DNA of 5,287 nucleotides from a virus (taxonomy: Duplodnaviria; Heunggongvirae; Uroviricota; Caudoviricetes). The first letter of the stretch is position 1; the number at the start of each line of letters is the position of its first letter. Made by a program: the position numbers and the translations under genes. Location of the stretch: IMG/VR virus record IMGVR_UViG_2681813269_000005. One strand, 5' to 3'. Shown piece by piece: positions 565 through 2,553 of the stretch. The notes below the pieces were generated by a model. That model saw nothing but the letters and a program-made list of their open reading frames with translations, was not told the DNA's origin and did no database searches.

Positions 565-900
565 CGTAAGCGTGCAGCAAGAACCGTATTGACGGGAATG
601 TGTTATTCAGTCGGCAGTGCTACGCGCCAGGGGAGCAGTTCGCCGACCCGGTTTATCGGCCAGTCGGCTATGACGTCAAGGACATAGCGGAGGTAGCTTT
701 CTGGCTCCACTCCGTTCAGTTTGCACGTCCCGATCAGGCTGTACAGCAGCGCTCCCCGCTCTCCTCCATGATCCGAACCGAAGAACAGGTAGTTTTTGCG
801 GCCCAGACTGACCATCCGCAACGCATTTTCAGCGATGTTATTGTCCGCCTCAGCCCAGCCATCATCTGCATAGTACGTCAGCGCCGGCCACTGGTTCAGG
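565..900 (-). mobile_element. IS66-family insertion sequence remnant: 3' end of tnpC (last ~98 codons) plus the terminal repeat end; inner boundary approximate
   Basis: C-terminal 98 aa of ORF 603..1334 (LNQWPALTYYADDGWAEADNNIAENALRMVSLGRKNYLFFGSDHGGERGALLYSLIGTCKLNGVEPESYLRYVLDVIADWPINRVGELLPWRVALPTE) match my recollection of the conserved IS66-family TnpC C-terminus. GTAAGCG at 565-571 lies 38 bp past the stop and exactly where homology to the other tail fibre copy ends; as I recall, IS66-family ends begin GTAA. Inner boundary (~900-940) is estimated by eye. Confidence 0.6.
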
Positions 901-1274
901 GCAGTTTGTGCTGTGACAGATTTTGCCAGCATGACTACCGGGGACAGGCGGCCCAGTGAGTTGGGGCCAGCATTCCAGATACGACCGTTCCATTCAAACG
1001 TGAACGGCTTCGCCTCCTGTTCTGTGCGCCATGCTTCAATTTCCTGACGTCTGGCCTCTCTGGCCGCTTCCAGCATTTCTGGTGTCACAGTGAATGGGGC
1101 TATCTCACCCCATTTGCCACTTTGCAGTTCCTGCCAGATTCGCTGACCCGTCGGTGCGACATCATCAGCGGTGGCTGTGTAGGGGACTGCCTGGTCCCTG
1201 TCGTCAAAAAAAACGTCACAGTCTACTGCGCCACTTTCGGTATAACGGGGATTAATGATTTTTTTAATTTCCAC
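603..1274 (-). CDS. chimeric ORF: tail-fibre assembly chaperone-like N-terminal part (DUF4376-like motif) fused in frame to the C-terminal fragment of an IS66-family TnpC transposase; probably non-functional
   Basis: Six-frame ORF 603..1334. N-terminal ~145 aa contain VTPEMLEAAREARRQEIEAW...PFTFEWNGRIWNAGPNSLGRL, which resembles DUF4376-type tail fibre chaperones and sits directly after a tail fibre gene. I prefer the GTG start at 1272-1274, preceded by GAGGAA (1281-1286) with a 6-nt spacer, over the ATG at 1334, which overlaps the upstream gene by 50 nt and has no Shine-Dalgarno. Confidence 0.55.
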   Translation of the reverse strand: MEIKKIINPRYTESGAVDCDVFFDDRDQAVPYTATADDVAPTGQRIWQELQSGKWGEIAPFTVTPEMLEAAREARRQEIEAWRTEQEAKPFTFEWNGRIWNAGPNSLGRLSPVVMLAKSVTAQTALNQWPALTYYADDGWAEADNNIAENALRMVSLGRKNYLFFGSDHGGERGALLYSLIGTCKLNGVEPESYLRYVLDVIADWPINRVGELLPWRVALPTE

Positions 1275-1284
1275 GGTGCATTCC

Positions 1285-2553
1285 TCACGATGTGCGAATA
1301 AAAAGCCCGGGCATTGCGCCAGAGACATGAGCATCCGGCACCCCGGACAGGGCGCTATATGACCCCGGTAATGAATGCTCTGAACATCCCGTAATGAAAA
1401 ATTGTGGGGATGCTATATACGTTCCGGTGGGAGTACTGGGCACTGAAATCCCCACCGGTCCCAGTCGTGAGCCTCTGTATGACTGCCCCCTGACAAGTCT
1501 GATGACTTTATCACCGTCAGCTTCTCCCTGGTACGCAGCAATAATCAGCCCGCCAATGTCAGGGTCTCCCCATCTGTTGCAGACAGAGCTCGCCACGATT
1601 CTGTAAATAATATCTTCTGTGGTTATATTTATTTTCACCCAGCCAGTCAGTCTGGATATGGGCCAGTAGCAGTAGCGGGTGTGATAAATGGGGCCGTTAA
1701 TGCCGTAAAAAGTAAGGGATTTGGCTCTGTACCTCGGTTCTGTTGTCTCAGGGCGTGCATCAGTCCACCGGATGCTGAGCACCCCTTCAAACCGTGTGTC
1801 GGGTATGATGATGTCGTAGGGGCCAGCAACGGAATATTCACCTGGCAGCGCATTCCTTACCCAGGCCAGGAAATCACTCTTAGTGTCAAAACGGATAACA
1901 TCTTCAGGCAGAAAAGCACACCCAAAGCCGAATGCGCCGGGTATCGCCAGACGGCCTTTTGTCCGGTCGTAAATGTCGCTCTGTGCTTCCATCGTGGCCG
2001 CACTTTTCAGCCCCAGATTATCCCGGGACTTCTGTTGTGCCTTTTCGCCTGCTGCTGCGATTTCAGACAGATGGTTAGCCGTTTTCAGAGTGCCGGTCAG
2101 CGCAGCATCAATGTCATTTTTGGCCTGCTCTGCTGCGCGGGCATAACCTGCGGCTGCCGCCACATCCTGCGCCGTCTGCTGTGCGTTTCCGGCTGCGGCC
2201 CCGGCGCTCTGCTGCGCCTGCGCCACCATTTCCTCAAAGCGTTTGACGACATCCGGTTTCAGGTCGCCCTCATCAGGAGCAATCAGAAAGTCATTCAGCG
2301 TGCCGGGCTTTGAGTCGTCGTATACAGCAATGTCGCCAACACAGTACTCGTCGCGCCAGTCCCGTTTCAGATACACGCAATATTTTCCGACCTGTGCCTC
2401 AAACGAATATTCACCGTTATTTCCGGTCACTACATCAGCCCTGGTACGCATCACCACTTCTGAGGTGTTTACACGGGATTTCAGAATAATCTGGCATCCG
2501 GACATGGGGATGCCTGCGCCATCAGTCAGCGCACCTGATATCACTACAGACAT
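1285..2553 (-). CDS. side tail fibre protein, lambda Stf-like N-terminal domain (paralog B, complete ORF, 422 aa)
   Basis: N-terminus MSVVISGALTDGAGIPMSGCQIILK...VYDDSKPGTLNDFL parallels lambda Stf (MAVKISGVLKDGTGKPVQNCTIQLK...VYEDSQPGTLNDFL). It is followed by an Ala/Gln-rich shaft segment (EMVAQAQQSAGAAAGNAQQTAQDVAAAAGYARAAEQA) and a ~200-aa C-terminal domain I cannot assign. ATG at 2551-2553, TGA at 1285-1287. Confidence 0.8.
   Translation of the reverse strand: MSVVISGALTDGAGIPMSGCQIILKSRVNTSEVVMRTRADVVTGNNGEYSFEAQVGKYCVYLKRDWRDEYCVGDIAVYDDSKPGTLNDFLIAPDEGDLKPDVVKRFEEMVAQAQQSAGAAAGNAQQTAQDVAAAAGYARAAEQAKNDIDAALTGTLKTANHLSEIAAAGEKAQQKSRDNLGLKSAATMEAQSDIYDRTKGRLAIPGAFGFGCAFLPEDVIRFDTKSDFLAWVRNALPGEYSVAGPYDIIIPDTRFEGVLSIRWTDARPETTEPRYRAKSLTFYGINGPIYHTRYCYWPISRLTGWVKINITTEDIIYRIVASSVCNRWGDPDIGGLIIAAYQGEADGDKVIRLVRGQSYRGSRLGPVGISVPSTPTGTYIASPQFFITGCSEHSLPGSYSALSGVPDAHVSGAMPGLFIRTS
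1909..2340. repeat. direct repeat copy 2 (432 bp, identical to 1-432), internal to the complete side tail fibre gene
   Basis: Same comparison as copy 1; the repeat period is 1908 bp. Confidence 0.95.

Follow-up and report, generated by a model that had tools for sequence, protein, structure and literature searches.

The apparent DUF4376-TnpC fusion gene of a Shigella sonnei prophage contig is very probably a scaffolding artefact

The stretch of DNA analysed here (hereafter, the window) comprises the complete record CXNR01000237.1 (5287 bp) of the draft Shigella sonnei assembly GCA_001256515.1, in reverse complement. It carries an open reading frame (ORF) of 243 amino acids (aa) in which the N-terminal part of a DUF4376 protein, encoded next to a prophage tail-fibre gene, is followed by the C-terminal end of TnpC, the transposase of the IS66 family of insertion sequences (IS). 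This chimera is very probably an artefact of scaffolding. The window and the public record differ in one position only, base 903, situated at the joint between the two halves, which is 'A' in the window and 'N' in the record. All genes of the window are on the minus strand and are detailed, together with the remaining features, in Table 1.

Identity to ISEc22 stops at position 902 and identity to the DUF4376 gene starts at position 904. The base 'A' at 903 fits neither canonical ISEc22 nor the DUF4376 alleles compared, and fits the IS relic of S. sonnei described below. Since the public record has N here, neither the continuity of the sequence nor its reading frame from 902 through 903 to 904 is observed data, and the sequenced DNA is interrupted at the very base on which a genuine fusion would depend. 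The codon at the joint is ACN, which encodes threonine whatever the base N may be, and for this reason the depositor's annotation gave a protein of 241 aa, starting at Met3 of the 243-aa ORF.

A first-pass annotation had described this ORF (603-1334) as a DUF4376 part fused in frame to the end of an IS66 TnpC. Both parts were recovered, whereas the in-frame junction was not confirmed, position 903 being an N in the record. Residues 1-144 were 100% identical to the N-terminus of the 207-aa DUF4376 proteins of S. sonnei, barring one allelic N/D residue. The ORF matched positions 2-129 of the 194 of PHROG 1141 (E 1.9e-57), and the intact 207-aa homologue matched positions 2-190. Against the Pfam profile of DUF4376 (PF14301), the chimeric ORF scored 24.2 bits, with a cut-off of 25, over profile positions 1-60 of 106. 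The C-terminal 63 residues of DUF4376 are missing from the scaffold and present in every complete genome examined. Mu-like remnants with DUF4376/PHROG 1141 genes flank ssrA, ipaH and sit in Shigella and enteroinvasive Escherichia coli (EIEC), with DUF4376 downstream of genes for a 'prophage tail fibre N-terminal domain'; in the window, as in all these related loci, the DUF4376 gene overlaps the last 50 nucleotides (nt) of the fibre gene. The window encodes the first 144 residues of the S. sonnei allele of these genes. Residues 145-243 matched PF03050 (positions 218-283 of 284) and PF13817 (positions 1-39 of 39), the end of the IS66 transposase, confirming the assignment of this part with 99 TnpC-derived residues instead of the 98 proposed. 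The last 99 codons of tnpC occupy positions 606-902 and the stop codon 603-605.

The two flanks of position 903 have different origins. Positions 904-5287 were 99.7-99.95% identical to ten S. sonnei chromosomes (L005-L014), where they form part of the prophage remnant on the ssrA/smpB side. The annotated DUF4376 protein of this locus has 205-207 aa in eight of the chromosomes, and the other two have an internal call of 121 aa; direct translation gave 207 aa in L005, L006, L009 and L012. The DUF4376 gene is followed by smpB in eight chromosomes and by another prophage in two (L006 and L010). Positions 1-903, comprising fibre copy A and the IS end, were 100% identical to contig L027 and to the complete genomes L035-L037. 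In L035-L037 and L039 the ipaH-island locus consists of the IS relic (encoding TnpB and a 152-aa mini-TnpC), truncated fibre A (388 aa), a second DUF4376 gene and ipaH, and in strain 53G (L038) the locus is disrupted after a shortened fibre A. The IS sequence at the ipaH island extends upstream of position 902, as ...GCGTTCGCATAT followed by GCCCTG..., with more of tnpC and with tnpB; a relic ending at window position 902 in real genomes was rejected on this basis. In JBEAAA010000004.1 the ssrA-side and ipaH-island loci are 91.9 kb apart and in inverted orientation. The intact DUF4376 gene of the ssrA locus is marked by CAGCACAAACGCATATGGCGTGGGG, the ipaH-island copy by CAGCACAAACACATATGGCGTGGAGC and the parental IS relic by GCGTTCGCATATGCCCTGAACC; a microhomology junction would read CAGCACAAACGCATATGCCCTGAACC and a one-base fusion CAGCACAAACNGCCCTGAACC with any single base, and a contig leading to smpB would start with GATGCCGATAATCAG.

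The break next to position 904 is recurrent. All 14 sister contigs, from the accession series of CXNR01000237.1 and from assemblies with a normal gene, show it at the identical nucleotide. In six of them (L016-L021) the same ...GCACAAAC is followed by a single N, and DUF4376 is taken up again 16 nt further along, at GATGCC...; five (L027-L031) have runs of 161-508 N from that nucleotide, and the remaining three (L032-L034) end there. At this point the ssrA-side copy reads ACG CAT ATG GCG TGG GGT GAT and the ipaH-island copy ACA CAT ATG GCG TGG AGC GAT, and the 16 nt lost in the sister contigs are exactly those from the first to the last difference between the paralogues (G/A, G/A and T/C). Between the window and locus 2 of L035 there were zero mismatches over 904-2340, and the first differing base downstream is 903. 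The break recurs at this position because the paralogous copies first differ there, after a perfect repeat of 1437 bp. On the IS side, the S. sonnei relic and canonical ISEc22 differ near 902 only at the 903 position, with T versus C on the gene strand. Further copies of ISEc22 are present at other sites on contigs from S. sonnei-type assemblies, and the copy of L041 matches the window exactly over 566-902, the 903 position being its sole difference. Each edge of the N is therefore the first base that discriminates between paralogues, and a gap filler would be expected to stop there. An IS insertion at codon 144 was also considered as the source of the partial DUF4376 proteins of 142-145 aa, and was rejected: no IS ends are visible at the N of the sister contigs, and the break coincides with the cluster of single-nucleotide differences between the paralogues.

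The chimera is unique to this scaffold. Homology searches among approximately 15 billion proteins gave one protein with full coverage, CTD31680.1, with a single member from a single contig of 5287 bp; exact look-up of the 243-aa ORF gave no entry, the deposited call beginning at Met3. No species-representative genome contained the 902/904 junction when these were scanned for its exact pattern. Megablast of the window and of its segments 500-1400 and 380-760 against 5,426 complete E. coli genomes gave no hit spanning either this junction or that between the IS end and fibre copy A, and likewise no plasmid or phage record crossed either of them. The 902/904 junction was not recovered from any independent assembly or genome, and the complete S. 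sonnei genomes hold the parental arrangements.

The accession series and the pattern of N indicate that the record was probably made by a Velvet/SSPACE/GapFiller-type (Sanger) pipeline. As published, this pipeline lets SSPACE make joins on as few as five read pairs, leaves N gaps and runs GapFiller for 120 iterations, and false joins are acknowledged (PMC5320598). Under the scaffolding explanation, two contigs from different prophage remnants would have been joined through a one-base placeholder, the N at position 903, later rendered as A. In gene order, the left piece (5287 to 904) is the Mu-like remnant beside ssrA/smpB, halting at the first base unlike the DUF4376 paralogue of the ipaH island. 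The right piece (902 to 1), from that ipaH island, consists of the end of an ISEc22-like element with an internal deletion and of the truncated fibre gene after it, and begins just past the only base separating the relic from other ISEc22 copies seen in S. sonnei. A gap filler working read by read and needing a clear majority base would stall at an ambiguous base on both edges. The frames would then coincide by a one-in-three chance and, with ACN encoding threonine, the annotation would read through the N into a fused protein. The joint resembles the single-N joints of SSPACE and GapFiller, in which one N stands between contigs where paralogous repeats differ and annotation reads through it. 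It differs from the joints of the sister contigs in what lies past the N, which is the remainder of the interrupted gene in those contigs and the sequence of another locus in the window. The internal deletion or illegitimate recombination previously invoked to join the transposase to the chaperone gene finds no counterpart in these data, which show a single-N scaffold joint and intact parental loci.

Several observations weigh against a scaffolding origin. No route for correctly oriented read pairs could be derived from the geometry of the 1437-bp repeat; since no correct-pair link between the contig ends could be reconstructed, a false join has to be assumed, and the adjacency of the two flanks is most readily read as such. 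An 8-nt sequence, CGCATATG, occurs both in the true continuation of the left piece and in the sequence that truly precedes the right piece, in register with the joint (window 895-910; L027 1517-1531; L009 11643-11660; C GCATAT G in both), and the chance of an in-register identity of this length is about 1e-3. A real microhomology junction would leave just such a match, and the identity may be its footprint or a coincidence. A single N can also mark true adjacency in the same project, for example in L019, where an IS10 end lies beside its target, and in L032 a single N represents exactly one ambiguous base. Finally, the case was built on a single deposited contig of this assembly.

These points bear on two other explanations. 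An unlikely one is that the adjacency is real in this isolate and contains no fusion, having arisen by an inversion of approximately 92 kb between the inverted ssrA-side and ipaH-island loci through the shared CGCATATG. The N would then hide 6 nt (GCATAT), and DUF4376 would read ...AQTHMP*, with 147 aa and out of frame with the TnpC tail; even an inversion would thus yield no DUF4376-TnpC fusion, because the DUF4376 frame stops after 147 residues. If it were true, DUF4376 would be truncated at that length and the IS66 tail and the second fibre copy would lie directly downstream. The in-register identity at the joint favours this explanation, as does the inverted position of the two loci 91.9 kb apart, from which the exact order fibre B, truncated DUF4376, IS tail and fibre A would result; true read pairs would account for the scaffold link, and a second ISEc22 copy of the C type, if present in the strain, would make the gap filler halt at both observed edges. 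However, the arrangement is present in one scaffold only. The predicted clean-junction product and the reciprocal products were absent by exact look-up from the approximately 15 billion proteins, and no hit of a synthetic reciprocal chimera used as query covered both halves. An inversion would require a rare illegitimate recombination within a few bases of paralogue-discriminating sites in both partners, and 14 sister contigs without any rearrangement break at the very nucleotide that forms its left edge.

Far less probable still is a genuine in-frame fusion, in which the N would be exactly one unresolved base and a 243-aa DUF4376-TnpC hybrid would be encoded. The frame is open with any base at 903, and the single N of L032 offers a precedent for one N standing for one base. 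Such a junction, however, would delete both copies of the shared 8-mer, an outcome predicted by no known mechanism; the left break falls on exactly the nucleotide of the recurrent technical break, no other contig encodes the protein, and complete genomes keep both parental genes. Scaffolding thus remains much the best explanation of the 243-aa ORF.

The IS end itself and its junction with fibre copy A are authentic. The insertion of an IS66 element into the 5' region of copy A, already recognised in the first-pass annotation, was corroborated: an ISEc22-type right end abuts nt 81 of the fibre gene at TGTTTACC (558-565), and the same junction is 100% identical in complete S. sonnei genomes. Positions 566-902 were 99.4% identical to the right end of ISEc22 and 100% identical to the S. 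sonnei IS66 relic. Alignment with the terminal repeats of the family matched 566-595 to the right repeat of ISEc22, with GTAAGCG at 566-572 and not at 565-571 as first given. The remnant in the window, estimated at about 335 bp, measures 337 bp, and the relic in the genome is larger, continuing upstream of 902. Fibre copy A was 98.8% identical to the intact EIEC fibre gene in L004; compared with fibre B, positions 1-432 are identical to 1909-2340, and 34 positions differ within 433-564.

A full ISEc22 copy (L003) has 2441 bp, ends in GTAAGCG...CGCTTAC, with left and right repeats agreeing in 23 of 30 positions, and is flanked by an 8-bp duplication, AGTTAACC. The window holds 337 of these 2441 bp, and not the set of a complete element (tnpA-tnpB-tnpC, two terminal repeats and an 8-bp target duplication). 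TnpC is represented in the window by its last 99 codons, the catalytic core being absent from the window and, in the genomic relic, removed by a deletion of 921-1984. In complete genomes the relic is missing its first 9 bp as well as 1064 bp of tnpC, and another IS interrupts it, its layout being ISEc22 10-277, the inserted IS, 275-920 (94.8% identical), the deletion of 921-1984, and 1985-2441. The deletion sits between short direct repeats and is in frame, leaving a relic that encodes TnpB and the 152-aa mini-TnpC (Q3YYZ0_SHISS of strain Ss046), an ORF present on 674 contigs. No second copy of the octamer TGTTTACC survives in the complete genomes, since another IS cuts into the left end of the relic there. 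In contrast to ISEc22, the relic has neither a complete left end nor a full transposase, and is presumably immobile. The junction between the IS and fibre A is unchanged in complete genomes (100% identity), and 674 contigs carry the mini-TnpC; the junction and the IS66 relic in the truncated fibre gene are therefore old features of S. sonnei, conserved and annotated before this analysis. A literature search on ISEc22 in Shigella gave nothing useful.

The relic (L035 5877-8496; L027 1276-1861) is a mosaic, with flanks 99.6% identical to ISEc22 and a tnpA/tnpB segment 94.8% identical in complete genomes, reduced in L027 to a piece of approximately 145 nt at 80%. The sequence upstream of the relic also differs among S. 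sonnei assemblies (L027 248-1147 versus L035 6209-7951), with a Mom-like gene directly upstream in L027 and IS elements and an IS66 tnpB in complete genomes, which suggests a further rearrangement or another scaffold join at the ipaH island. In the unrelated E. coli phage phiv205-1 (H91; MN340231.1, 6310-6647), the right end of ISEc22 (99.7%) adjoins an annotated tail-fibre gene, a second instance of ISEc22 beside a fibre gene.

Table 1. Features of the 5287-bp window. Arrows give the direction of reading.
Feature	Position	Strand	Remarks
Baseplate J gene, C-terminal part	5239→4742	-	Cut by the IS1 end at 5240-5287
Mu gp48/YmfQ-like gene	4742→4152	-	
Tail-fibre protein, 350 aa	4177→3125	-	
Caudo_TAP tail-fibre assembly gene	3122→2577	-	Nonsense codon at 3072-3074
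Fibre B, 422 aa, intact, prophage tail fibre N-terminal domain	2553→1285	-	PF08400, E 2.4e-63
Questioned ORF, 243 aa	1334→603	-	DUF4376 part and TnpC tail
DUF4376 gene, first 144 codons	904-1334	-	Codon 144 completed by the N
Scaffold joint (probable)	903	none	'N' in record, 'A' in window
ISEc22-like end of the IS66 family, last 337 bp	566-902	-	ISEc22 identity, terminal repeat, Pfam
Target octamer TGTTTACC beside the IS end	558-565	none	Candidate 8-bp target duplication
Fibre copy A, 5'-truncated, from fibre nt 81 onward	565→1	-	ipaH-island prophage remnant
Perfect repeat R, 1437 bp	904-2340	-	Common to the ssrA-side and ipaH-island loci

The remaining genes of the window belong to the ssrA-side prophage. 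Fibre B is found as the exact same protein in many S. sonnei genomes. Positions 5240-5287 are IS1 terminal sequence, which truncates the baseplate J gene at the end of the window; identity to an IS-free EIEC prophage ends at 5239, and IS1 genes lie directly past the window end in complete S. sonnei genomes. The Caudo_TAP gene (2577-3122) has TAA at codon 17, where the EIEC homologue encodes glutamine, and the TAA codon is also present in the complete S. sonnei genome L009. The ssrA-side prophage is consequently a decayed remnant, whatever the answer for DUF4376. The suggestion that the chaperone had lost its C-terminal part, leaving fibre B without an assembly partner, does not hold for complete genomes, where DUF4376 is intact with 207 aa, and it is moot in a prophage already wrecked by the IS1 in baseplate J and the nonsense codon in Caudo_TAP. 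A chaperone role for DUF4376 is putative and not established, the domain being of unknown function in Pfam and labelled 'tail fiber protein' in PHROGs.

Other products of the same fork were detected. The RefSeq protein WP_052962150.1, a 202-aa DUF4376 'variant' without HMAWG, derives from 21 draft contigs in which the 16 nt are replaced by a single N, and its five-residue 'deletion' is an assembly artefact and not an allele. P0267, an 85-aa S. sonnei protein in nr, consists of 27 residues from the antisense strand of ipaH (L035 10923-11003) followed by the C-terminus of DUF4376; its DUF4376 part starts exactly at DADNQQ, the GATGCC edge of the fork, and it is probably another joint artefact. 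In the sister scaffold L016 (3568-4830), 251 bp of the fibre gene are duplicated around an N run and an IS3-family element, a pattern that resembles a further joining of paralogous loci within this project.

The DUF4376-TnpC fusion is almost certainly not a real feature. Silent conversion of one N to a base created a plausible in-frame 'domain fusion', public as CTD31680.1, and in scans of raw sequence for chimeric genes both N-derived bases and the boundaries of paralogous repeats should be held suspect. For the biology of S. sonnei the weight of the finding is small, as the real parts of the ORF are known features of this organism, conserved and already annotated.

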